From the NCBI GenBank assembly GCA_012520795.1, contig JAAYNP010000006.1:4673-68672 (forward strand): DNA of 64,000 bases. Reading direction: 5' to 3'. A program made the position numbers and the translations under genes. Under the pieces are notes generated by a model. It saw nothing but the letters and a program-made list of their open reading frames with translations. It did no database searches and was not told the DNA's origin. Source of the DNA: Bacillota bacterium (lineage in GTDB: Bacteria; Bacillota; Limnochordia; Darwinibacteriales; DTU012). Of this stretch, positions 3,668 to 17,083 are shown piece after piece; the first letter of the stretch is position 1, and the number at the start of each line of letters is the position of its first letter.

Positions 3668-4393
3668 GTGCATAAGTTACAACAGCAGTTCCAAGCGCAA
3701 ATCCAAGAACTGGTAGATGCCTGTGTCCGTGTGGCGGAACTGGGCTACGTTACCTCCCACGGAGGCAATCTATCGTACCGGGTGGCCGAGAATGTTGTTT
3801 TGATTACACCTACAAAGGTTGCCAAACGTAAAATAAGATTTGACGACATTTGTATTATCAATATGGAAGGCAGTGTGCTCTATGCCAAAGAGGGGCGAAA
3901 ACCGACAGGCGAAACCCCATTCCATCTACGGATTTTTGCACGCCGCCCTGACGTGAAAGGGATTGTCCATGCCCACCCACCGGTTATGACCGGCTTTGCC
4001 ATTGCCAGCACAGATTTATTGGCATTGCCCACATTGCCGGAACCTATCATTGAAGTTGGGCCCATGCTGACGGTGGAGTATGAGGAGCCGCTGACAGAAG
4101 CTCTGGCCCAAGCTTTTGACGACAAGCTGGATTATGCTAATGCATTTCTTATGAAGAACCACGGTGCCTTGGTCGTCAGCACAGACTGTGTGGAGAGGGC
4201 TTTAGATTTCTTTGAAATGATGGAGGCTGCGGCCAAATCGCTTCTCGTGGCTAAGCTGCTGGGTGGAGTAGACTTGTTATCCAGGGAAGATGTGGAAAAC
4301 CTGGAGCGGACCATGAAAACGCGGCACTTGCCGATGCCGGGTGCTCCCGGCAAGGTCTCCGGTTTGGTGGAATTGTTCTTTGGCAAGAAATAA
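3668..4393 (+). CDS. class II aldolase/adducin family protein (fuculose-phosphate aldolase-like)
   Basis: GTG start after RBS aggagg. Motifs HGGNLSYRV, HAHPP and MKNHGALVV are typical of class II aldolases. Confidence 0.7.
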   Translation: MHKLQQQFQAQIQELVDACVRVAELGYVTSHGGNLSYRVAENVVLITPTKVAKRKIRFDDICIINMEGSVLYAKEGRKPTGETPFHLRIFARRPDVKGIVHAHPPVMTGFAIASTDLLALPTLPEPIIEVGPMLTVEYEEPLTEALAQAFDDKLDYANAFLMKNHGALVVSTDCVERALDFFEMMEAAAKSLLVAKLLGGVDLLSREDVENLERTMKTRHLPMPGAPGKVSGLVELFFGKK

Positions 4394-7695: not shown

Positions 7696-8907
7696 CTATT
7701 TTGTCTGCAGCCTGGAAAGAAACTGCTGGTACCGTTCACGCAGATCCGGCAGGGCGACTGTTTCCAGGATGTAGTCCGTATATGCTTCATTGGTGGCGCC
7801 GTCACTGCGGCCGGTGAGCTTCACTCTACACTCAAACTGACTGCAGATATCCAGAGCCATCTGCAGCCTTTCTGCTTCCAGGTTAACACCAATATGTTCC
7901 AGCAGCATGACACTGGCTTTTATCAGGCTGCTCGGATCGGCATAGACAGCCCGGCCTTCCGCCACCATCCGCGGTGCAGAACCGTGGATAGCCTCAAACA
8001 TGGCGTATTGCGTGCCGATATTGGCACTGCCTGCGGTCCCCACTCCGCCTTGAATCTGGGCCGCTTCATCGGTTAGGATGTCTCCATATAGGTTTGGCAT
8101 AACCATAACTTCGAACTCCGAACGGCGGCTGGGATCGATCAGTTTTGCGGTCATAATGTCGATATACCAATCATCGCAGGTAATATCGGGGTATTCTTTG
8201 GCAATCTCTTTGGCGATGCTCAAAAACTTGCCGTCTGTGGTTTTGACTACATTGGCCTTGGTCACGATGGTAACCCTTTTCCTGCCGTGAAGCTTCGCAT
8301 ATTCGAATGCGGCGCGGATGATACGCCGTGAGCCCTGAGTGGTGGTTACTTTGAAATCGACTGCCAAATCAGGGGTGACATTCAATCCAAGACTGCCCAG
8401 GGCATATTCACCTTCGGTGTTCTCCCGGAAAAACATCCAGTCTATATTCAACTCCGCGACCCGCACAGGGCGGATATTGGCGAAGAGGTCGAATTCACGC
8501 CGCATTGATACATTGGCACTTTCAATATTAGGCATGCCAGTGCTTTGATCAGGAGTAGTAGTCGGGCCTTTCAACACCACGTGGCATTGGCGCAGTTCAG
8601 CAAGGACATCATCGGGAATTGCCTGCATCCGGGCAATGCGGTTTTCAATGGTCAGCCCCTCAATTGTCCGCAGTTCTACTTTGCCGGCTTTGATTTTGTC
8701 CGCCAAAAGCTCTGCCAGGATCCGATGGGCTTGGTTTGCTATATACGGCCCGATGCCGTCTCCTCCGACAATACCAATGATGATCTTGTCAAGGTTCTGG
8801 TAATCAATGAAGCCCTCATCTTGCTTCATGCGCTCGATCCGCCCGAGCTGAGCTTCGAGAATGCTTGCAAAGTGTTGTTTTGCAGCATCAATTTCTTGCT
8901 TGTACAT
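7696..8907 (-). CDS. icd: isocitrate dehydrogenase (NADP-type) / isocitrate-isopropylmalate dehydrogenase family
   Basis: 403 aa with GIVGGDGIGP and the family signature region. RBS ggagggg. Confidence 0.7.
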   Translation of the reverse strand: MYKQEIDAAKQHFASILEAQLGRIERMKQDEGFIDYQNLDKIIIGIVGGDGIGPYIANQAHRILAELLADKIKAGKVELRTIEGLTIENRIARMQAIPDDVLAELRQCHVVLKGPTTTPDQSTGMPNIESANVSMRREFDLFANIRPVRVAELNIDWMFFRENTEGEYALGSLGLNVTPDLAVDFKVTTTQGSRRIIRAAFEYAKLHGRKRVTIVTKANVVKTTDGKFLSIAKEIAKEYPDITCDDWYIDIMTAKLIDPSRRSEFEVMVMPNLYGDILTDEAAQIQGGVGTAGSANIGTQYAMFEAIHGSAPRMVAEGRAVYADPSSLIKASVMLLEHIGVNLEAERLQMALDICSQFECRVKLTGRSDGATNEAYTDYILETVALPDLRERYQQFLSRLQTK

Positions 8908-9020
8908 GGTACCCCTCCGTATTCTCTCGATAGAACATGTCGCAAATTTCCATTTTCTTCGGTATCGATCTCAATAAATCCTTTTTCTGTGGTATAATTG
9001 TGCTAGTCAGGGGGAGGAAG

Positions 9021-10196
9021 ATGACGAACCTGTTTATAGTAGTGATTTTGATCTATTGGTTTGCCATGTATGTTTACATGCCGATTCTCACCCCATACGT
9101 GGAAAGCATGGGAGCATCGTTAAGCATGGTTGGCTTGATTCTCGGTTCCTATGGCTTTACGCAAATGTTGATTCGAATTCCTCTTGGCATTTATTCTGAT
9201 CGGATTGGCAAACGCAGAATTTTCGTTATTCTGGGGATGGCTTGTTCCACCATCAGCTGCATTGGGCTGGGTATTGCCAATACACCGTGGCTGGCTTTGC
9301 TGTTTCGGGGATTGGCTGGAGTGGCTGCTGCTGCATGGGTAGTCTTTACGGTAATGTATGCCAGCTTCTATCCGGCGGAACAATCGGGCAAGGCCATGGC
9401 AGTGATTATGTTTTACACATCGTTGGGCCAACTTGCAGCGTCGGCTTTTGGGGGAGTTGCTGCCGACGCGTTAGGGTATCAGGCACCGTTTATCATTGGC
9501 GGCGGTGTGGGGCTGATTGGCCTTATCCTCAGCACCCGGATTAAAGAACCGGCAATCCGTACACAGCCGCTGAACTTGAGATCTTTGATTAAGGTGGGCC
9601 TTAATCCGCAGCTGTTATGGATCAGTACCTTGGCTCTTTTGGTACAAGCGATCAACTTCGCGACCATTTACGGTTTTAACCAATCGTATGCAGTAAGTGT
9701 TGGAGCCAATGATCAGCAATTGACTTTTTTGATGCTCGTATCCGCGTTGGCGATTGCTGTGGCATCACGGGCAAGTAATTCTGTAGCGGCCAGAATCGGG
9801 GAACGCCGGGCGCTGGTTCTTTCATTTGTAATGATGATGCTGGCTTCAGGAAGTGTTCCGTACACATCCAGCATACCGGTTTTGTATCTTACTCAGGCAG
9901 TGAATGGGTTGGGGCGTGGGTTGATTTACCCTGTATTGTTGAGCCTGAGCATCAAGTGTGTGACTCCGGACAAACGGAGTACAGCCATGGGTTTCTTTCA
10001 AGCCCTATACGGCATCGGCATGACAGCCGGGCCGGTTTTTGCCGGCTGGATCAGCGATCAGTTCGGCATGCAGATGGGATACCTAAGTGTGGCGCTTTTG
10101 GGCGCAGCGGGATGTCTGGCTGCAGCAGGCTGGCCAAGTAAACAGCAAATGGGTGACTGCAGCGAAAACAGGCCGATTGGAGAGGATAAACAATGA
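9021..10196 (+). CDS. MFS transporter
   Basis: 12 predicted TM segments and an MFS loop motif (GIYSDRIGKRR). RBS ggggagga. Confidence 0.75.
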   Translation: MTNLFIVVILIYWFAMYVYMPILTPYVESMGASLSMVGLILGSYGFTQMLIRIPLGIYSDRIGKRRIFVILGMACSTISCIGLGIANTPWLALLFRGLAGVAAAAWVVFTVMYASFYPAEQSGKAMAVIMFYTSLGQLAASAFGGVAADALGYQAPFIIGGGVGLIGLILSTRIKEPAIRTQPLNLRSLIKVGLNPQLLWISTLALLVQAINFATIYGFNQSYAVSVGANDQQLTFLMLVSALAIAVASRASNSVAARIGERRALVLSFVMMMLASGSVPYTSSIPVLYLTQAVNGLGRGLIYPVLLSLSIKCVTPDKRSTAMGFFQALYGIGMTAGPVFAGWISDQFGMQMGYLSVALLGAAGCLAAAGWPSKQQMGDCSENRPIGEDKQ

Positions 10197-12166
10197 ATAT
10201 CCAGCATTTACCGGTTATTTCCTGTAACACCGTCGTGGTGGGCAGTGGAGTAGCAGCGCTGAATGCGGCGGATCGCCTTGTCAACTATGGGCAAAAGGAC
10301 GTTGTCATCGTTACTGAAGGTATGAACATGGGAACATCGCGCAATACCGGGTCTGATAAACAAACCTATTACAAGCTGACTCTTTCCGGCGCCGAGCCCG
10401 ATTCGGTTTACGATATGGCCAGGACTTTGTCTGACGGGGGAGCCATGGACGGAGATATCGCTCTGGTGGAAGCGGCCTTGTCTGCCCAGGCCTTTTACCA
10501 CCTTGTGGATATTGGTGTGCCTTTTCCCCATAATCCGTTCGGCGAGTATGTGGGCTATAAAACGGACCATGATCCCAGGCAGCGGGCAACTTCTGCAGGC
10601 CCCTTAACCTCCAAGTACATGACGGAGAAGCTGGAGCAGCAAATCAGGGCGAAAGGGATTCCGGTCTATGACCGCCACCAGGTAATCGGTATTCTCACCG
10701 ATGCAGCGGGGAGCCGGGCTATCGGCGTGATTGCCCTGGCACTTGATGTGGATCCAACTCAGTCCGATCCGTATGTGCTGTTCAACGCTGCGAATGTGGT
10801 CTACGCTACCGGCGGCCCAGCGGGCATGTACGGGACTTCCGTATATCCACCCAGCCAGACGGGGGCCACAGGCATAGCCTTTGAAGCGGGGGTTAAAGGC
10901 AAAAACCTTACGGAAAGCCAGTTTGGGATTGCTTCGATCGCATTTCGGTGGAATTTGTCAGGCACCTATCAGCAGGTACTGCCGAGATATGTTTCAACAG
11001 CCCCTGACGGCAGTGAACCTAGAGAATTTCTGGCGGATTATTTTCCGGATCCAGGAAAAATGCTGGATGCAGTCTTTTTTAAAGGTTATCAATGGCCGTT
11101 TGATCCCCTCAAGGTGGCTGATTACGGCTCATCCTTGATTGACATACTCGTTTATTATGAGACTGTCGTCAAGGGGCGCCGTGCATTTCTGGATTTTCGC
11201 CGTAACCCATCATGGGGTTCATCAAGCGGGGAATTGGATTTCTCACTGCTTGGTGAAGAAGCATACACGTACCTTAAGAACTCACAGGCCTTGTTCGGGC
11301 GGCCGATCGACCGCCTGGCTCACATGAATCAGCCGGCCATTGATCTCTATTGTGACAATGGCATTGATCTCAGTCAGGAGATGCTGGAGATTGCCGTGTG
11401 TGCCCAGCACAATAATGGGGGCTTGGAAGGGAATATTTGGTGGGAAAGCAATTTGCAGCATTTCTTTCCTGTGGGCGAGGTTAACGGTACACACGGTGTG
11501 TACCGTCCCGGCGGCAGCGCTCTCAACTCCGGGCAGGTAGGCAGTACCAGGGCAGCCCAATATATCGCAGCCCGTTACCGGGAAGAGCCCATGGCCCGGA
11601 GCCAGTTTCTGGCCGAAGCCAAACCCCAGATTATGGCGAAGATGGAGTTGGGAAGGAAGTTTTTGGCAAAGCTTGGGGATAGAAGCAATGTTTCCGAAAT
11701 AAGGAGTCAAATCCAGGATCGCATGACCAGATCAGGGGCACATATCCGGTCATTGGAACAGGCCAAGACTGCTGCAGAGGCCGCCTTGACCCAATTAAGA
11801 AGCCTGGTTGAAGATACCAGAATCGGTTCCCCGTATGAACTGAGGCTTTGTTTCCAGAATTACGATTTGTTGCTTTCTCAGTATGTCTATCTTTCGGCGA
11901 TTAAAGATTACATTGAAAAGGGCGGAAAAAGCCGCGGTTCATACTTGATATATGATTCCGAGGGCGAGCTGCCTTTGCCGCAGCTGCCTGAACAGTTCCG
12001 GTTTTCATTAACCACAGATCCCTATTTTCACAAGCACATTCAACGGGTGCGGCTGCAGGGGTTCAGCTGCAGTTTCAGCTGGGATCCGGTCAAACCAATC
12101 CCCCGGGAATCAGGATGGTTTGAAACAGTATGGAATGACTTTTTGGCGGGCAGGATCATTCAATAA
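10193..12166 (+). CDS. FAD-binding oxidoreductase (succinate dehydrogenase/fumarate reductase flavoprotein-like, FAD_binding_2)
   Basis: N-terminal Rossmann motif VVVGSGVAALNAA. Its ATG overlaps the MFS stop (ATGA). Confidence 0.6.
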   Translation: MNIQHLPVISCNTVVVGSGVAALNAADRLVNYGQKDVVIVTEGMNMGTSRNTGSDKQTYYKLTLSGAEPDSVYDMARTLSDGGAMDGDIALVEAALSAQAFYHLVDIGVPFPHNPFGEYVGYKTDHDPRQRATSAGPLTSKYMTEKLEQQIRAKGIPVYDRHQVIGILTDAAGSRAIGVIALALDVDPTQSDPYVLFNAANVVYATGGPAGMYGTSVYPPSQTGATGIAFEAGVKGKNLTESQFGIASIAFRWNLSGTYQQVLPRYVSTAPDGSEPREFLADYFPDPGKMLDAVFFKGYQWPFDPLKVADYGSSLIDILVYYETVVKGRRAFLDFRRNPSWGSSSGELDFSLLGEEAYTYLKNSQALFGRPIDRLAHMNQPAIDLYCDNGIDLSQEMLEIAVCAQHNNGGLEGNIWWESNLQHFFPVGEVNGTHGVYRPGGSALNSGQVGSTRAAQYIAARYREEPMARSQFLAEAKPQIMAKMELGRKFLAKLGDRSNVSEIRSQIQDRMTRSGAHIRSLEQAKTAAEAALTQLRSLVEDTRIGSPYELRLCFQNYDLLLSQYVYLSAIKDYIEKGGKSRGSYLIYDSEGELPLPQLPEQFRFSLTTDPYFHKHIQRVRLQGFSCSFSWDPVKPIPRESGWFETVWNDFLAGRIIQ

Positions 12167-12190
12167 GGAATCTGTAAAGAGGTGGCAGCC

Positions 12191-13066
12191 TTGAGTATTG
12201 GTGCAAACATTAAAATTGCCATAGTAACAGGCTTGTCTGGTGCCGGCAAAACCCAGGCCATGAAAGCATTGGAGGACTTGGACTATTTCTGTATTGACAA
12301 TCTTCCGCCTTCGCTGCTGCCCCAGCTTCTGCAGATTCATCAAAAAACGGAAGAAACCAGGCCTCTTGCCGTTGCCATGGATGTGCGGGGAAAAGGGCTT
12401 TTCGCAGACCTGACTGGTGTGATCAAGTGGCTGGATGAGCATCAGGTGGATTACACCATAGTTTTTCTGGAATGTGAGGATGATGTCCTGGTCCGCAGAT
12501 TCAGTGAAACCAGGCGCAGGCATCCACTGGCTGATCAGGGCAGCCTTTACGACAGTATTGCCTATGAACGGAAGCTGTTGGCCAATATTAGAGAATTGGC
12601 ACATGTAATTGTCGATACTTCGACTATTAAGCCCGCTGAGTTGAAAGCTTATTTGAACCAGGCTCTCCTTGGTGGAGACAGTTCGCAGTTGTTATTAAGC
12701 ATCGATATCCTTTCCTTTGGTTATAAATATGGTGTTCCCAATGATGCGGACATTATTTTTGATGTGCGGTTTTTGCCCAACCCTTTCTATATTGACCATC
12801 TCAAGGATTTCAGTGGATTGGAACCGGAAGTTGCCGAATATGTATTGAGGTGGCCGCAAACCCAGTACTTTCTTGACGAGTTTTACCGGTTGATCGTCAA
12901 GCTACTGCCGGCGTACAGCAGTGAGGGAAAGGCCAGGTTGACGATTGGGATTGGATGTACAGGTGGGAAACACCGTTCGGTGGCCATCAGCTGCGAACTT
13001 GGCGCCAGGCTTACCAAGGATGGGTTCAACAACCAGGTCAGGCATAGGGACCTCAATGAGAATTAA
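12191..13066 (+). CDS. rapZ: RNase adaptor protein RapZ (YvcJ family P-loop protein)
   Basis: Motifs GLSGAGKT, DNLPP and GCTGGKHRSV. TTG start with RBS agaggtgg. Confidence 0.8.
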   Translation: MSIGANIKIAIVTGLSGAGKTQAMKALEDLDYFCIDNLPPSLLPQLLQIHQKTEETRPLAVAMDVRGKGLFADLTGVIKWLDEHQVDYTIVFLECEDDVLVRRFSETRRRHPLADQGSLYDSIAYERKLLANIRELAHVIVDTSTIKPAELKAYLNQALLGGDSSQLLLSIDILSFGYKYGVPNDADIIFDVRFLPNPFYIDHLKDFSGLEPEVAEYVLRWPQTQYFLDEFYRLIVKLLPAYSSEGKARLTIGIGCTGGKHRSVAISCELGARLTKDGFNNQVRHRDLNEN

Positions 13067-13223
13067 TTGGTGTTATGCTTGTATTCAACCACGAACTGTG
13101 GTATGCTAAGACTGCGTTAAAAGGTAGGGAAGTTTGTACACGTGCTATGGCCTCTTCGGCTGGAAACGATGCTTGCAGCTTCCACTTTTAATGAGTATAT
13201 TTTTAAGGAGGCCATAAAGGTTT

Positions 13224-13421
13224 ATGGTAGGTAAAGTAAAATGGTTCAATGCGGAAAAGGGCTTCGGTTTCATCGAACAGGAAAACGGTGAGGATGTATT
13301 TGTCCATTTCACCGCCATTCAAGGCGATGGATTCCGCACTCTGGAAGAAGGCCAGCAAGTGGAGTTCGAGATTGTGGACGGCAAGCGCGGCCCCCAAGCT
13401 GCCAATGTTGTCCGCCTTTAA
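13224..13421 (+). CDS. cspA: cold-shock protein (CspA family)
   Basis: [16 protein letters not shown] and [11 protein letters not shown] motifs, with a long 5' UTR. Confidence 0.9.
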
Positions 13422-13439
13422 CCGCTGAACAGAACCGAA

Positions 13440-13474
13440 CCCAGCCGCAGTCAATCACTGCGGCTGGGTTTTTT
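13440..13474 (+). terminator. rho-independent terminator after csp
   Basis: Stem cccagccgcag / ctgcggctggg followed by tttttt. Confidence 0.7.
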
Positions 13475-13569
13475 ATTGCAAGAGGTATGCGAACAATGCA
13501 CATATGTACAATCAAGGCGCATAATGGTATATGTGACAAAAACCTGCGGTAGGTTTGTGGGGTGGGGCC

Positions 13570-15141
13570 ATGCTCACGTCTCTCTTGACTTTAATCCAAC
13601 ATCACTATGAAACGGGGTTGGACGATTATTGGCTGCCGGCCATGATCAAGTGCTCCAACGCCGGGATCCCGGTGGGCAGGGTCAAAAACGGTGATGTGTT
13701 GATTTTTGCCTGCCGCAGAGGCGAGCGGGAAATCCAGCTTACGGAAGCCTTTGTAGATCCGGATTTTGCTCATTTTCGCCGTAAATATCTGGCAGACTTG
13801 GCTTTCTTTCCCATGATTGAGTATCACAGTAGATTTGCGAAGCACCCTGCATTGTTTCCCGTGCTGAAACCTCCAGAGCCTCTCGGAGAGGCTTTGGCCC
13901 GTCAGGGGCTAAAGCAGCTGCGGATTGCCGAGTCAGAAAAAATGGCTCATGTAACCTATTATTTCAACGGAAGAAGGGAACAGCCATATCCAGGCGAAGA
14001 CTGGATCTGCATACCCAGCGTTAAAACCGGGCTGCAGCATCATCCCCAGATGCGGACTGTGCAGATTGCCGACACACTTGTTCAGTCTCATTGTACACAA
14101 GGCTATCGATTTGCTCTGGCGAATTTTGCCGCCGGCGATGTCTTCGGGCATTTTCCCGACTTTCAGGCTCAGGTTAGCTGTGTGGAAACCATAGACTCTG
14201 CCGTTGGCACCATTACCGGGTTTTGTAAGGAATACGGCTACTGTTTGATCATCACTGCCGATCACGGACTTTTGGAGCAGGCATATTTGCCCGATGGTAG
14301 TTGGAGCCTGGGCCATACTCAAGCATACGTGCCGTTAATACTGTTTGATCCTCAGGCAGTTGGCAGCATAGAGACGTTGGCGGAAATAGGCTCTTTGGCG
14401 GATGTTGCGCCCACGATTCTGCACTTGCTGGGGATCAGACCACCAAGTGTGATGACGGGGAGGTCATTGTTCAGGCCATATATTACTGCAGCCAGAGGGG
14501 TCATTTTGCTGATCCTGGATGGGTTTGGAATTGGAGTGGAGGACCCGGAAATCAATCCAATTAGTGCCGCAAAAACGCCTAATCTTGACTGCCTGTTTGC
14601 CAACTACCCCCATGCCGCATTAGAAGCATCGGGTACATATGTCGGTTTGGCACCTCACTCCAGCGGTAATTCTGAAGCGGGGCATCTCACCCTTGGTGCG
14701 GGGCGGGTGGTGATGCAGGATGAAGTGCGCATTCCCGCCAGAATTACACCGGAAAACCTCAAACAGAACCAGGCGTTTTATCGCAGGATCAGAACCTTGA
14801 TATCAGGCCAGGCTGTCCATATCCTGTTTCTATTGTCTCCGGGAAGTTCCCACGGGAGTACTGATGAAGCTGTCAAGCTGCTTGAAGTGTTAAAGCAGTG
14901 GGGAGTGGAATCGGTGTACCTCCATGCTGTCACAGACGGGCGCAGCGCACCCCGGTTAGGGGCGGTGAAAATGCTGCTGCAGCTGCAGCACACCCTCGAT
15001 CGGTTAGGGGTAGGCGAAATCGTTACCACCTGCGGCCGCGGTTATGTGTTGGATCGCAGCGGCCAGTACCAAAAGTGTACAAAGCATGCCTATGAAGCCT
15101 TGGTTGAAGGAAATGGGATTTTTTGGCAGGGCAGTCCCTGA
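13570..15141 (+). CDS. 2,3-bisphosphoglycerate-independent phosphoglycerate mutase-like protein, circularly permuted (C-terminal part, then linker, then N-terminal part)
   Basis: Residues 1-301 carry the iPGM C-terminal motifs RIAESEKMAHVTYYF, ITADHG and LADVAPTILHLLGI..MTGRSL. After linker RPYITAAR, residues 310-523 carry the N-terminal motifs ILLILDGFG, GNSEAGH, GAGR, HAVTDGRS and GVGEIVTTCGRGY. Confidence 0.65.
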   Translation: MLTSLLTLIQHHYETGLDDYWLPAMIKCSNAGIPVGRVKNGDVLIFACRRGEREIQLTEAFVDPDFAHFRRKYLADLAFFPMIEYHSRFAKHPALFPVLKPPEPLGEALARQGLKQLRIAESEKMAHVTYYFNGRREQPYPGEDWICIPSVKTGLQHHPQMRTVQIADTLVQSHCTQGYRFALANFAAGDVFGHFPDFQAQVSCVETIDSAVGTITGFCKEYGYCLIITADHGLLEQAYLPDGSWSLGHTQAYVPLILFDPQAVGSIETLAEIGSLADVAPTILHLLGIRPPSVMTGRSLFRPYITAARGVILLILDGFGIGVEDPEINPISAAKTPNLDCLFANYPHAALEASGTYVGLAPHSSGNSEAGHLTLGAGRVVMQDEVRIPARITPENLKQNQAFYRRIRTLISGQAVHILFLLSPGSSHGSTDEAVKLLEVLKQWGVESVYLHAVTDGRSAPRLGAVKMLLQLQHTLDRLGVGEIVTTCGRGYVLDRSGQYQKCTKHAYEALVEGNGIFWQGSP

Positions 15142-15252: not shown

Positions 15253-16965
15253 ATGGATGCCAAACTGGCTTACTACGCGTGGTTGAACGATGAGCGCATA
15301 GATTCCAAAACCAAGCAAGAGTTATCTGGGATTGAGGGGTGCGCTCAAGAGATCTACGATCGCTTTTCTCAGCAGCTGGAGTTTGGCACAGGCGGCTTAC
15401 GGGGGATTATGGGCGCCGGTACCAACCGGATGAATGTTTATACAGTACAGCTGGCTACCCAAGCATTTGCTCAGTTTTTGATCAATCACGGGCAAAGCGA
15501 GGCCGGTGTTGTCTTGGCCTATGATTCCCGGAACCGATCCCGTGAGTTTGTTGAGACTGCAGCCGCCGTTTTAACAGGCAACAAGATTCCCGTCTATGTG
15601 TTTCGCCGTATCACACCGACACCGCTTTTGTCATTTGCTGTCAGACACTGCCGGGCGGGAGGCGGCATCATGATTACCGCCAGCCACAACCCGAAAGAGT
15701 ATAACGGATACAAAGCCTACGGCAGCGATGGAATTCAACTGCATCCAAAGGCTGCCGCTGAGGTCAGCCGCTTGATGGCAGGCTTGACGCTGGCTGATGT
15801 CAAAGTTGATCACAGCTTCCATTCGAGCCCATTGTGGCATTGGATTGACGCCGAGGTATGCGAAGCGTATTTTCAAAAACTTGCCAGGCTGGCTCCTCCC
15901 AGCAATGATTATGACATGGGCTTGCGGATTGTCTATACGCCCCTGCACGGTGCCGGAGCACAATTTGTACCGCGGGCTCTAAGCCAGGCTGGGTTCCATC
16001 ATGTGTATCTGGTCACCGAACAGATGGAGATTGATGGTGAGTTTCCTACGGTTATGATACCGAACCCGGAGGAACCGGATGCGTTTCGGCTGGCATTTGA
16101 CTACGGGTCGAAACATGGGGCAGACTTGATTATCGCTACTGATCCCGACTGTGATCGGGTTGGGGTGGCGGTCTTGCAGCACGATCACTATGTGCTGCTC
16201 ACCGGCAACCAAGTCGGAGTGTTGTTGGCGGATTTCCTGCTTACACGGCTGCCTCCGGGACAATGCCGCAACCAAGTCATTGTCAAAACCATCGTTACAA
16301 CCAACATGATCTATCCCATTGCCAGGAAGTATGGCGCAAAGGTTGTGGATACGCTGACGGGCTTTAAATATATTGGCAGCACTATCAAGGAATTGGTGAG
16401 CCAAGGCGAGCAGTTCCTGTTCGGGTTTGAAGAGAGCTGCGGGTATCTGGCCGGCAGTTTTGCCATGGATAAGGATGGAGTTATGGGTGCACTGCTGGTT
16501 GCTCAGGCAGCGGCATATTATCGAAAACTTGGTTTGACCCTTCAGGATCACCTTGATCAACTGATGGGGGAGTATGGGTATCATCAGGAAACTTTGCAGT
16601 CCTATCATTTTGGCAATCAAACCGAAGTGGAACAAGCACAGCAGTTCATCGATTACTTGCGTCAGGCAAAAATAACAGAAATTGCCGGTTGTCCGGTAAA
16701 ATCGATCAAAGATTATCTCAATGGGACCCATGTTGACTTGGAGGAGAACCAAACCTACAAGCTGAACTTTCCCCGTGAAAACGTTATTCAGTGGGAAACC
16801 ACGGAAGGAGATGTGGTTACACTGCGCCCAAGCGGCACAGAACCAAAAATGAAACTGTATATCTCGACCGTGGCCGGTGACCCCAGGCAGGCCGCCTGTA
16901 AGCTGGAGAAATTGGAGCGGGCTTGCGATGCAATGATCAACCAAGGCTTGGCTGTTATATCGTAG
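15253..16965 (+). CDS. phospho-sugar mutase (alpha-D-phosphohexomutase family, PgcA-like phosphoglucomutase)
   Basis: TASHNP catalytic loop, GFEESCGY, and the sugar-binding region. Confidence 0.8.
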   Translation: MDAKLAYYAWLNDERIDSKTKQELSGIEGCAQEIYDRFSQQLEFGTGGLRGIMGAGTNRMNVYTVQLATQAFAQFLINHGQSEAGVVLAYDSRNRSREFVETAAAVLTGNKIPVYVFRRITPTPLLSFAVRHCRAGGGIMITASHNPKEYNGYKAYGSDGIQLHPKAAAEVSRLMAGLTLADVKVDHSFHSSPLWHWIDAEVCEAYFQKLARLAPPSNDYDMGLRIVYTPLHGAGAQFVPRALSQAGFHHVYLVTEQMEIDGEFPTVMIPNPEEPDAFRLAFDYGSKHGADLIIATDPDCDRVGVAVLQHDHYVLLTGNQVGVLLADFLLTRLPPGQCRNQVIVKTIVTTNMIYPIARKYGAKVVDTLTGFKYIGSTIKELVSQGEQFLFGFEESCGYLAGSFAMDKDGVMGALLVAQAAAYYRKLGLTLQDHLDQLMGEYGYHQETLQSYHFGNQTEVEQAQQFIDYLRQAKITEIAGCPVKSIKDYLNGTHVDLEENQTYKLNFPRENVIQWETTEGDVVTLRPSGTEPKMKLYISTVAGDPRQAACKLEKLERACDAMINQGLAVIS

Positions 16966-17054: not shown

Positions 17055-17083
17055 ACTAGTCATTCCAGACTAGTTTTTGTTTT
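17055..17083 (+). terminator. rho-independent terminator after the phospho-sugar mutase gene
   Basis: Stem actagtc / gactagt followed by ttttgtttt. Confidence 0.45.

Follow-up and report, generated by a model that had tools for sequence, protein, structure and literature searches.

The window analysed here, a stretch of 64,000 nucleotides, carries on its plus strand a single uninterrupted ORF (positions 13570–15141) of 523 codons, encoding 523 amino acids, which runs from an ATG at 13570 to a stop codon at 15139–15141, exactly as an earlier note on this DNA had described it. All of the other features at the locus lie on the same strand. Upstream, the cold-shock gene ends in an intrinsic terminator (13437–13471; a 15-bp stem with nine GC pairs, followed by TTTTATT), which bounds the transcription unit of the ORF on its 5′ side. 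It is followed by a promoter-like site, TGCACA-17-CATAAT (13497–13525), which is a pattern match only (9 of 12 positions in a consensus scan), and by a G-rich Shine–Dalgarno-like stretch read from the sequence, GTGGGGTGGGG (13557–13567), directly before the ATG. Because of this stretch, ATG 13570 seems preferable to TTG 13555 as the start codon. Downstream lies a gene for an alpha-D-phosphohexomutase, or phospho-sugar mutase (15253–16965; Pfam PGM_PMM_I–III), whose product reaches no NCBIfam equivalog cut-off, and then a weak terminator-like hairpin (17055–17074; a 7-bp stem with three GC pairs). The gap between the two genes is 111 nt and a scan of it found no terminator, so that they may be co-transcribed. 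No canonical gpmI, gpmA, apgM, eno, pgk, tpi or gap gene was found within the 64-kb window.

The product of the ORF is a circularly permuted cofactor-independent phosphoglycerate mutase (iPGM), and the gene is real and intact. Every iPGM motif quoted in the earlier note is present in the translation, and the halves are swapped as it had proposed: the window protein matches the Bacillus stearothermophilus iPGM (PDB entry 1EJJ) in two off-diagonal blocks, with a whole-sequence E-value of 1.9e-81 (phmmer against PDB sequences). Residues 7–301 align with 1EJJ 218–509 (i-E-value 1e-44) and residues 309–518 with 1EJJ 4–212 (i-E-value 1.4e-33). Escherichia coli GpmM gave the same picture by tblastn and blastp, its residues 223–511 falling on 9–301 of the window protein and its residues 2–214 on 305–518. 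The Pfam families Metalloenzyme (PF01676; 170.4 bits) and iPGM_N (PF06415; 122.4 bits) each match in two stretches; in particular, residues 104–289 cover profile positions 71–250 of the former and residues 390–516 positions 3–129 of the latter. The GpmI equivalog model TIGR01307 is likewise passed in two stretches (387.6 bits for a cut-off of 330.65).

The order along the chain is thus transferase-B, phosphatase-C, junction, phosphatase-N and transferase-A, and the canonical order (phosphatase-N, transferase insert, phosphatase-C) is not found. Residues 1–99 (13570–13866; approximate boundaries from the Pfam and 1EJJ alignments) correspond to the second half of the phosphotransferase domain, about 1EJJ 218–310, and hold Arg50 and Arg53 (R261 and R264) as well as the clade-specific Arg49 in CRRGERE. 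Residues 100–301 (13867–14472; Pfam), about 1EJJ 311–509, form the C-terminal part of the alkaline-phosphatase-like phosphatase domain and by residue mapping contain Lys124, Asp190, His194, Asp231, His232 and His249. The junction RPYITAAR is located where it had been placed (residues 302–309, 14473–14496, from the 1EJJ alignment); through these eight residues the ancestral C- and N-termini are fused within the phosphatase domain. Residues 310–385 (14497–14724; about 1EJJ 4–77 in the same alignment) supply the N-terminal part of that domain, with Asp317 (D12), the nucleophile Ser368 (S62) and His372 (H66) by residue mapping, and residues 386–523 together with the stop codon (14725–15141; Pfam iPGM_N, about 1EJJ 78–212) supply the first half of the phosphotransferase domain, with His428, Arg458, the clade-specific Ser459 at the canonical Asp154, Arg490 and Arg496. 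The new termini fall in the stretch matching 1EJJ 213–217 in the transferase domain, in agreement with the loop to which they had been assigned. The structure prediction called for by the earlier note gave a confident AlphaFold model (pLDDT 94.6), which dips to 84 in the RPYITAAR block. The chain would begin midway through the phosphotransferase domain, enter the C-terminal two-thirds of the phosphatase domain by way of the second hinge, cross the eight-residue junction to the N-terminal phosphatase part and finish, after the first hinge, with the first half of the transferase domain. Only the connectivity would thus be changed, the two hinges and the two domains being left intact.

The seven residues of the metal site (six ligands and the serine nucleophile) are all present in the window protein: Asp317 (D12 in 1EJJ), Ser368 (S62), Asp190 (D403), His194 (H407), Asp231 (D444), His232 (H445) and His249 (H462). 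The substrate-site residues map in the same way: His372 (H66), His428 (H123), Arg458 (R153), Arg490 (R185), Arg496 (R191), Arg50 (R261), Arg53 (R264) and Lys124 (K336). All seven of the former and all eight of the latter are invariant in 53 of the 53 members of the clade to which the window protein belongs (hereafter G1). The metal-site roles of 1EJJ Asp12, Ser62, Asp403, His407, Asp444, His445 and His462 we take to be those given by Jedrzejas et al. (2000). The equivalents of these residues in Caenorhabditis elegans iPGM are listed in PMC5382265. The substrate site is adjoined by a signature particular to G1, with DGRD changed to DGRS, NFRxDR to CRRGERE, GGVHS to xSSHG and GRYY to GRGx. The Asp154 of DGRD, a motif present in 121 of 131 canonical iPGMs, is not kept: 52 of 53 members have Ser at this position, which is Ser459 in the window protein; Phe260 is replaced by Arg or Lys in 53/53, Tyr186 by Gly in 46/53, and the changes of Asn259 to Cys and of Gly121-Val122 to Ser-Ser are near-invariant. 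Asp154 presumably carries functional weight in iPGM, a role for which our search of the literature found no source. The serine in place of this otherwise conserved aspartate could be taken as the mark of a pseudoenzyme, an inactive relic with the fold kept and catalysis gone. We regard this as very improbable, given that the seven metal-site residues and all of the basic substrate-site residues are invariant at only about 40% identity, as is seen when an active site is under purifying selection, and that the ORF is intact in all adequately covered assemblies.

The permutation and its authenticity, the family membership, the conserved residues, the confidently modelled fold and the gene contexts are thus observed; enzymatic activity, substrate identity and evolutionary route we infer, with catalysis as in canonical iPGM. 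The window protein is most likely a working mutase of 3-phosphoglycerate (3PG) and 2-phosphoglycerate (2PG). Asp317, Ser368, Asp231 and His232, together with Asp190, His194 and His249, would form a two-metal site that activates Ser368, to which the substrate would pass its phosphoryl group. His428, Arg458, Arg490, Arg496, Arg50, Arg53 and Lys124 would hold the resulting acid as it reorients, and its neighbouring hydroxyl would then receive the phosphate back, a reaction that most probably interconverts 3PG and 2PG.

A swapped order of this kind would also be produced if a tandem duplication of an ordinary gpmI had been collapsed or mis-joined at the junction during assembly, and two public assemblies of the same organism (P0001 and P0006) do carry broken copies. 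The exact window protein occurs in 39 blocks of the sequence collection, of which we read 24 contigs (ENA, NCBI, JGI and Logan); a 3.5-Mb contig in GCA_030054815.1 also carries it. The gene is 100% identical at the nucleotide level, and intact, in six assemblies made independently of one another, with samples and pipelines that differ. The two broken copies, the only ones among the assemblies compared, differ solely by single-base deletions (one or four), at coverages of 3.9x and 1.3x, and every adequately covered assembly has an intact ORF. Moreover, more than 100 homologues (40–72% identity, four phyla) share the order and the junction length, and the permuted gene has its own upstream terminator and Shine–Dalgarno-like stretch. 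An assembly artefact is refuted by the independent assemblies and keeps practically no probability.

The gene is not the lone case that it had seemed to be, and belongs instead to a large multi-phylum family already present in databases as ordinary iPGM, the name that public records give to the permuted proteins. All 120 of the 120 best database homologues (41–72% identity) are permuted like the window protein; two further entries, 100% identical, are broken copies and were kept outside the 120. In contigs representing one genome per species, 588 stretches encode relatives of the window protein, and the best 80 of these are all colinear with it over residues ∼4–516. They come from Chloroflexota (Anaerolineae), Oscillospiraceae and other Bacillota, Kosmotogaceae and Bipolaricaulota. 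The permuted family spans at least 80 verified species of anaerobic bacteria in four phyla, and probably several hundred species. In full-text literature searches we found no paper on a permuted iPGM, in line with the earlier note, whose author was aware of none.

The G1 clade is monophyletic in 100 of 100 neighbour-joining bootstraps. In this clade the permutation most likely occurred once, anciently, with later spread of the gene across phyla. As to how it arose, the junction spacing is 29–33 residues in 107 permuted proteins, its length kept within two residues while its sequence varies, and in canonical iPGMs the tail at the C-terminus and the head at the N-terminus sum to mostly 27–35 residues. 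Since the spacing equals tail plus head, the data fit the route already suggested, tandem duplication and loss of both ends: most likely a tandem gene duplicate was fused in frame and both outer ends were then lost. Candidate relics of the lost half-domains were rejected as spurious. Upstream of two genes (L019 and L083), the matches to E. coli residues 144–220 contain stop codons and have negligible identity, and long N-terminal ORF extensions (L061, L062 and L073) show no homology. Of two possible double-length intermediates, P0188 is uninformative, its contig of 1,520 bp being closed at neither end, and P0203 (5,027 residues) is probably a run-on gene call.

A second lineage of permuted iPGMs (P0205, P0305 and P0307, also P0201) has the same breakpoints and is colinear in chain order with the window protein, with a junction of 32 residues in P0205, similar to that of G1. 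Unlike G1, it has kept the canonical motifs FNFRxDRA, DGRD and GRYYAMDRD, and its nearest relatives are canonical iPGMs (47–53% identity). Only three of 100 bootstraps united all permuted proteins in one clade, suggesting that the second lineage arose separately; permutation appears to have arisen at least twice in iPGMs. In P0205 and P0305, which lie in a housekeeping region, the permuted gene and the end of pgi overlap. We count the canonical motifs and the pgi overlap of this lineage in favour of the permutation being compatible with glycolysis.

The phosphohexomutase gene that the earlier note had reported directly downstream (as a phosphoglucomutase) is indeed there, but as lineage-specific synteny. 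It adjoins permuted orthologues at three other loci (L011, L012 and L096), is missing beside a 60%-identical orthologue (neighbourhoods without it are L098 and P0007) and was found at none of 78 loci outside the window clade. A functional partner confined to the window sub-clade was not retained, and we treat the arrangement as inherited synteny. In this sub-clade, the permuted gene follows rapZ and csp and lies beside the phospho-sugar mutase gene. Elsewhere in G1 the permuted gene usually follows HAD hydrolase genes closely, within clusters under LacI or RpiR regulation, many of them with an Afu-like transporter; G1 genes were not met with in glycolytic operons.

This setting and the clade-specific substitutions speak for reading G1 as a neofunctionalized phosphomutase, or phosphatase, that would apply the same serine and two-metal chemistry to another small anionic organophosphate, which we hold to be possible but clearly the less probable reading. 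G1 enzymes would then work with HAD phosphatases on AfuABC-like imports under LacI/RpiR control, outside housekeeping glycolysis, an assignment to which we give the same modest weight. Of the 34 other-Bacillota loci, 29 have a HAD-IA hydrolase gene no more than 3.5 kb away on the same strand, as have 35 of the 38 Chloroflexota loci, with an approximate intergenic gap of median near 60 nt. At 30 of the 38 Chloroflexota loci, the same strand also carries, again no more than 3.5 kb away, the gene of an ApgM-type mutase scoring above its own equivalog cut-off, which argues against simple redundancy, and a PRK/uridine-kinase-like kinase gene is nearby in 28 of 38. The idea that these kinases are glycerate 3-kinases found no support, since uridine kinases and phosphoribulokinases were their only PDB and NCBIfam matches. 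Genes for LacI, RpiR and a fused-permease ABC transporter are also common nearby, and the binding protein of the transporter best matches AfuA (PDB entries 4R72-75) and the PLP-binding P5PA (PDB entry 6WCE), both of which bind phosphorylated organic ligands (PMC4546632, PMC8427247). Neither pgk nor tpi is near the permuted gene at any of the 81 loci examined, and a gapA homologue lies about 8 kb away at one of them. Under this reading, one operon would join the permuted enzyme to HAD phosphatases and an AfuA-like ABC importer, with an ApgM-type mutase and PRK-like kinases added in Chloroflexota, and the near-invariant D154S, F260R/K, N259C, GV-to-SS and Y186G changes flanking the substrate site would include specificity determinants (D154S, F260R and Y186G).

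Against a shifted substrate, the residues known to bind phosphoglycerate by its phosphate and carboxylate groups are all invariant and the TIGR01307 cut-off is still passed. In the window sub-clade, which lies in a housekeeping-looking region, the HAD, ApgM and ABC neighbours are missing (none of three loci; likewise L096–L098). At one locus (L016), the G1 gene directly follows an enolase gene, the only adjacent case among the 81, which fits a route from 3PG through 2PG to PEP. Gene context alone, moreover, cannot define a substrate. The best explanation, and in our judgement a probable one, is a functional, naturally permuted iPGM of duplication–fusion origin, with 3PG/2PG interconversion as its most probable reaction. 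That G1 has a new specificity on the iPGM scaffold, for another phosphorylated acid or sugar, and that permutation at the same transferase-domain loop has occurred more than once in iPGM evolution, has perhaps half the credence of this explanation.

Central to glycolysis, iPGM is also a target for drugs against microbes and parasites, and the mechanism by which its two domains open and close has been well studied. From a natural permutant it would follow that a break in the chain is tolerated at one particular place in the inserted transferase domain, and permuted iPGMs could be useful for studies of enzyme folding and for engineering. Automatic annotation labels the permuted proteins as ordinary gpmI, since two out-of-order matches together reach the TIGR01307 cut-off. 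In metabolic reconstructions, Anaerolineae, Oscillospiraceae and biogas-reactor Bacillota may thus be credited with a housekeeping PGM, wrongly so if the substrate differs. The neighbourhood of HAD, ApgM, kinase and Afu-like transporter genes points to an uncharacterized organophosphate pathway, open to study in the cultured Levilinea saccharolytica KIBI-1, which has an orthologue of the permuted gene (L064).

Compared with known systems, the window protein is closest to canonical iPGM (1EJJ/1O98 and E. coli GpmM), with homology over its full length and 33–38% identity in the aligned halves. It would share the two domains, which in iPGM are linked by two hinge peptides (PMC5382265); it has identical metal-site, serine and Arg/Lys/His substrate-site residues, and differs in being permuted, in its clade-specific motif changes and in lacking the company of pgk, tpi and eno (one locus apart for eno). 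The archaeal-type iPGM (ApgM; TIGR00306, PF10143) has the metal core of the alkaline-phosphatase superfamily in common with it but a different inserted domain; membership of that family was rejected (29.6 bits for a TIGR00306 cut-off of 320 and no PF10143 match), as was an assignment to phosphopentomutase (DeoB), with 36.9 bits for 254 in NF009049 and 20.2 for 341 in TIGR01696. A parallel for the permutation itself is PGM3, another phosphoserine-dependent phosphomutase with a natural circular permutation, in which the connectivity is altered while the active-site geometry and the three-dimensional position of the active-site loops are kept (PMC5570346). The fold of PGM3 is unrelated and about 60 residues have moved within one domain, whereas in the window protein the shift takes in roughly 40% of the chain, with the cut inside the inserted domain.

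The gene is a single unbroken ORF of 523 codons, from the ATG at 13570 to the stop codon at 15139–15141, and the ORF, motifs and coordinates described in an earlier note all lie in the sequence where they had been placed. The swapped order claimed there was reproduced by alignment: in a phmmer search of all PDB sequences, residues 7–301 matched residues 218–509 of 1EJJ, the canonical B. stearothermophilus iPGM (i-E 1e-44), and residues 309–518 matched residues 4–212 (i-E 1.4e-33), two off-diagonal blocks whose order is reversed with respect to 1EJJ; the halves are likewise swapped in comparison with E. coli GpmM. The Pfam Metalloenzyme and iPGM_N domains are each split over two stretches of the protein, and TIGR01307 scores 387.6 bits (cut-off 330.65) with two stretches summed. 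Along the chain, the second half of the transferase domain (residues 1 to about 99) is followed by the C-part of the phosphatase domain (about 100–301), the junction RPYITAAR, which fuses the ancestral C- and N-termini (302–309, DNA 14473–14496), the N-part of the phosphatase domain (310 to about 385) and the first half of the transferase domain (about 386–523). Canonical iPGM carries its transferase domain as an insert within the phosphatase domain, so both of its termini lie in the latter. The new termini fall, as anticipated, in the transferase domain: the cut corresponds to 1EJJ 213–217, between two helices, and both hinges are retained. The AlphaFold2 model (53-sequence alignment) is confident (pLDDT 94.6, pTM 0.91), with pLDDT dropping to 84 at the junction, 72 at residues 261–270 and 61 for the last three residues.

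The exact 523-aa protein occurs in 39 collection blocks, from which 24 contigs were read (ENA, NCBI GCA_030054815.1, JGI, Logan); several of the samples come from biogas or anaerobic-digester metagenomes. In six of these contigs the gene is the same as ours at every nucleotide, with 3-kb flanks that differ by 0–3 bases, which effectively excludes an assembly artefact; a pseudogene is effectively excluded as well. Only P0001 and P0006, two database entries of shorter length, show a split ORF; their sole differences from our gene are four and one single-base deletions, in assemblies at 1.3x and 3.9x coverage, respectively. These deletions are sequencing errors and do not speak for a split gene. 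The two source loci (L009 and L010; ENA ERZ2648049 and ERZ2647956) are low-coverage assemblies of the same organism, and the truncated P0001 is the representative of its 90% cluster. It is highly probable that we are dealing with a true iPGM homologue that is circularly permuted and under selection.

The permutation is shared by a family. All of the 120 best homologues are permuted in the same way relative to E. coli GpmM, with 41–72% identity to our protein (two 100%-identical broken copies apart). A one-genome-per-species scan gave at least 600 pattern matches; among the matches listed, 588 encode relatives, and in each of the best 80 of these a single colinear match covers query residues from about 4 to 516. 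According to the record titles, the 78 of these 80 loci outside the close relatives of our gene comprise 38 Chloroflexota (mainly Anaerolineae, including the cultured Levilinea saccharolytica KIBI-1), 34 Bacillota (among them Oscillibacter, Dysosmobacter, Faecousia and Christensenellales), five Thermotogota (Kosmotogaceae and other Thermotogae) and one Bipolaricaulota. HMMER, run exhaustively over 1.84 billion representatives at 50% identity, returned 1,337 iPGM-like proteins at E 1e-30 or better; about 19 of the best 150 match as one full-length stretch and hence are permuted, the rest matching in two stretches, as canonical proteins do. The junction varies in sequence, and the distance across it from DxAPT to hhhhDGWG is 29–33 residues in 107 members. 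Public records name the permuted proteins as ordinary iPGM: our protein is entered at NCBI as MDI9419991.1 and NLL87506.1 (uncultured Bacillota), and another entry of its 90% cluster, a fragment, carries the label Limnochordia. Neither NCBIfam nor Pfam has a model specific to the permuted form, and no solved structure of one was found.

The HMMER search also recovered permuted proteins, such as P0205 and P0201, with the fully canonical motifs FNFRxDRA, DGRD and GRYYAMDRD. This second lineage (P0205, P0305 and kin) has the same breakpoints as G1, the clade that contains our protein. P0205 has only five permuted relatives (75–85% identity), the next proteins being canonical iPGMs at 47–53%. On three contigs, one of them a 512-kb contig from NCBI, its gene lies in a housekeeping region and overlaps pgi at the latter's 3′ end (L102:8001-9626, L105:8001-9626 and L106:2286-3911 for the lineage). 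In a bootstrapped neighbour-joining tree of un-permuted sequences, a weak method on sequences this divergent, G1 is monophyletic in 100/100 replicates, all permuted proteins form one clade in only 3/100, and the permutants with canonical motifs have canonical proteins as nearest neighbours in each case. On the simplest reading, this permutation has had at least two origins. The junction of either lineage is as long as the canonical C-tail and N-head together, exactly what in-frame tandem fusion followed by loss of the ends would yield; the origin proposed in the earlier note fits both. Two further matches stand apart: P0203 (5,027 aa), with a permuted iPGM match at 3861–4370 and canonical motifs, is probably not a real fusion but a run-on gene call (e.g. 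wrong genetic code), and P0188 (L104, the 1,520-bp contig JAGLHV010000347.1), a permuted-order iPGM ORF that runs off its contig at either end, may represent a permuted gene, a tandem duplicate that has fused, or an assembly that wraps around.

We restored the canonical order in 53 members of the family and aligned the resulting sequences with 1EJJ and E. coli GpmM. The two-metal site and nucleophile (D12, S62, D403, H407, D444, H445 and H462; D317, S368, D190, H194, D231, H232 and H249 in our protein) are invariant, as are the substrate-site residues H66, H123, R153, R185, R191, R261, R264 and K336 (H372, H428, R458, R490, R496, R50, R53 and K124), the residue roles being those described for 1EJJ and 1O98. 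Given this complete set and a TIGR01307 equivalog score above cut-off, together with the pgi-linked permutants, which indicate that the topology is compatible with glycolysis, and one enolase-adjacent G1 member, the most economical reading is that our protein interconverts 3PG and 2PG, and we consider this fairly probable. The main rival, a shifted substrate for G1, is less probable and has two points in its favour. The first is a near-invariant signature beside the active-site residues: D154 is replaced by S in 52/53 members and F260 by R or K in 53/53, along with N259→C, G121-V122→S-S, S124→G and Y186→G, substitutions that adjoin the substrate site; canonical iPGMs have DGRD in 121/131 and GNSEVGH in 100/131.

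The second is gene context, which outside our sub-clade is strikingly conserved and unlike that of our gene. A HAD-IA hydrolase gene is found at most 3.5 kb away, on the same strand, at 29/34 other Bacillota and 35/38 Chloroflexota loci, often as two to four tandem copies (approximate gap median near 60 nt). Under the same limits, Chloroflexota loci carry an ApgM-type mutase (30/38; e.g. L037:12740-13945, NF003160 548 bits, cut-off 468) and PRK/uridine-kinase-like kinases (28/38). Most Anaerolineae loci have one or two of these kinases, about 400 aa long (e.g. L046:2005-3201), of which roughly the first 190 aa are unmatched. In the ±10-kb Bacillota loci we found PfkB kinases (22/34, 15 of them on the same strand and at most 3.5 kb away) and an H+-pyrophosphatase (12/34, all 12 so placed). 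Regulators of the LacI and RpiR families are common, and so is an ABC transporter whose fused permease is about 611 aa long (e.g. L019:16356-18191); subsets of loci have UxaE, iolB, iolD, Gfo/Idh/MocA and sugar-phosphate-isomerase-like genes. The transporters beside many G1 genes are publicly named iron transporters. The binding protein (L033:6185-7162) best matches AfuA (4R72-75) and P5PA (6WCE), whose ligands are hexose and heptose phosphates and pyridoxal phosphate, respectively (PMC4546632, PMC8427247), which suggests organophosphate uptake. Neither pgk nor tpi was found nearby at any of 81 loci; a gapA homologue is present at one of them, about 8 kb off. At one locus, L016 (a Clostridiales MAG), an enolase gene (8513-9760, +) lies immediately upstream of the permuted iPGM (10001-11524); this enolase is divergent (35% identical to E. 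coli Eno; TIGR01060 308 bits, cut-off 300), and the two genes could form a paralogous module akin to lower glycolysis.

Our sub-clade is without the HAD/ApgM/kinase/Afu-like neighbourhood but has the same signature, and thus shares the substrate uncertainty of G1. Upstream, csp ends in a strong terminator (13437–13471); ATG 13570 is preceded by a promoter-like site and a G-rich Shine–Dalgarno-like stretch, and no terminator was found in the 111 nt between our gene and the phosphohexomutase gene that follows it. Relatives at 58–72% identity share the order rapZ, csp, permuted iPGM, (phosphohexomutase), chrA, tetR etc.; beside P0007 (60% identical) the phosphohexomutase gene is absent. In our window rapZ and then the cold-shock gene occupy 12182–13454, and the rapZ–permuted iPGM adjacency is still kept in a 47%-identical relative (L013); the expected partners of rapZ in Bacillota gene order are yvcK and whiA. 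Upstream of rapZ, and conserved there in related genomes, lies a gene for a 657-aa FAD_binding_2 flavoprotein (10193–12166, +), below every NCBIfam cut-off (best models TfrA, NadB and SdhA-like, 60–90 bits). The 64-kb window contains no further PGM gene, and eno, pgk, tpi and gap are likewise absent from it.

The permuted enzyme would be of greater interest if the substrate has indeed shifted. Full-text searching of the literature turned up no account of a permuted iPGM, in agreement with the earlier note, which knew of none. Among other enzymes natural circular permutants are well known, the phosphomutase PGM3 (PMC5570346) being one; what appears to be new here is the occurrence of such a permutation in iPGM.
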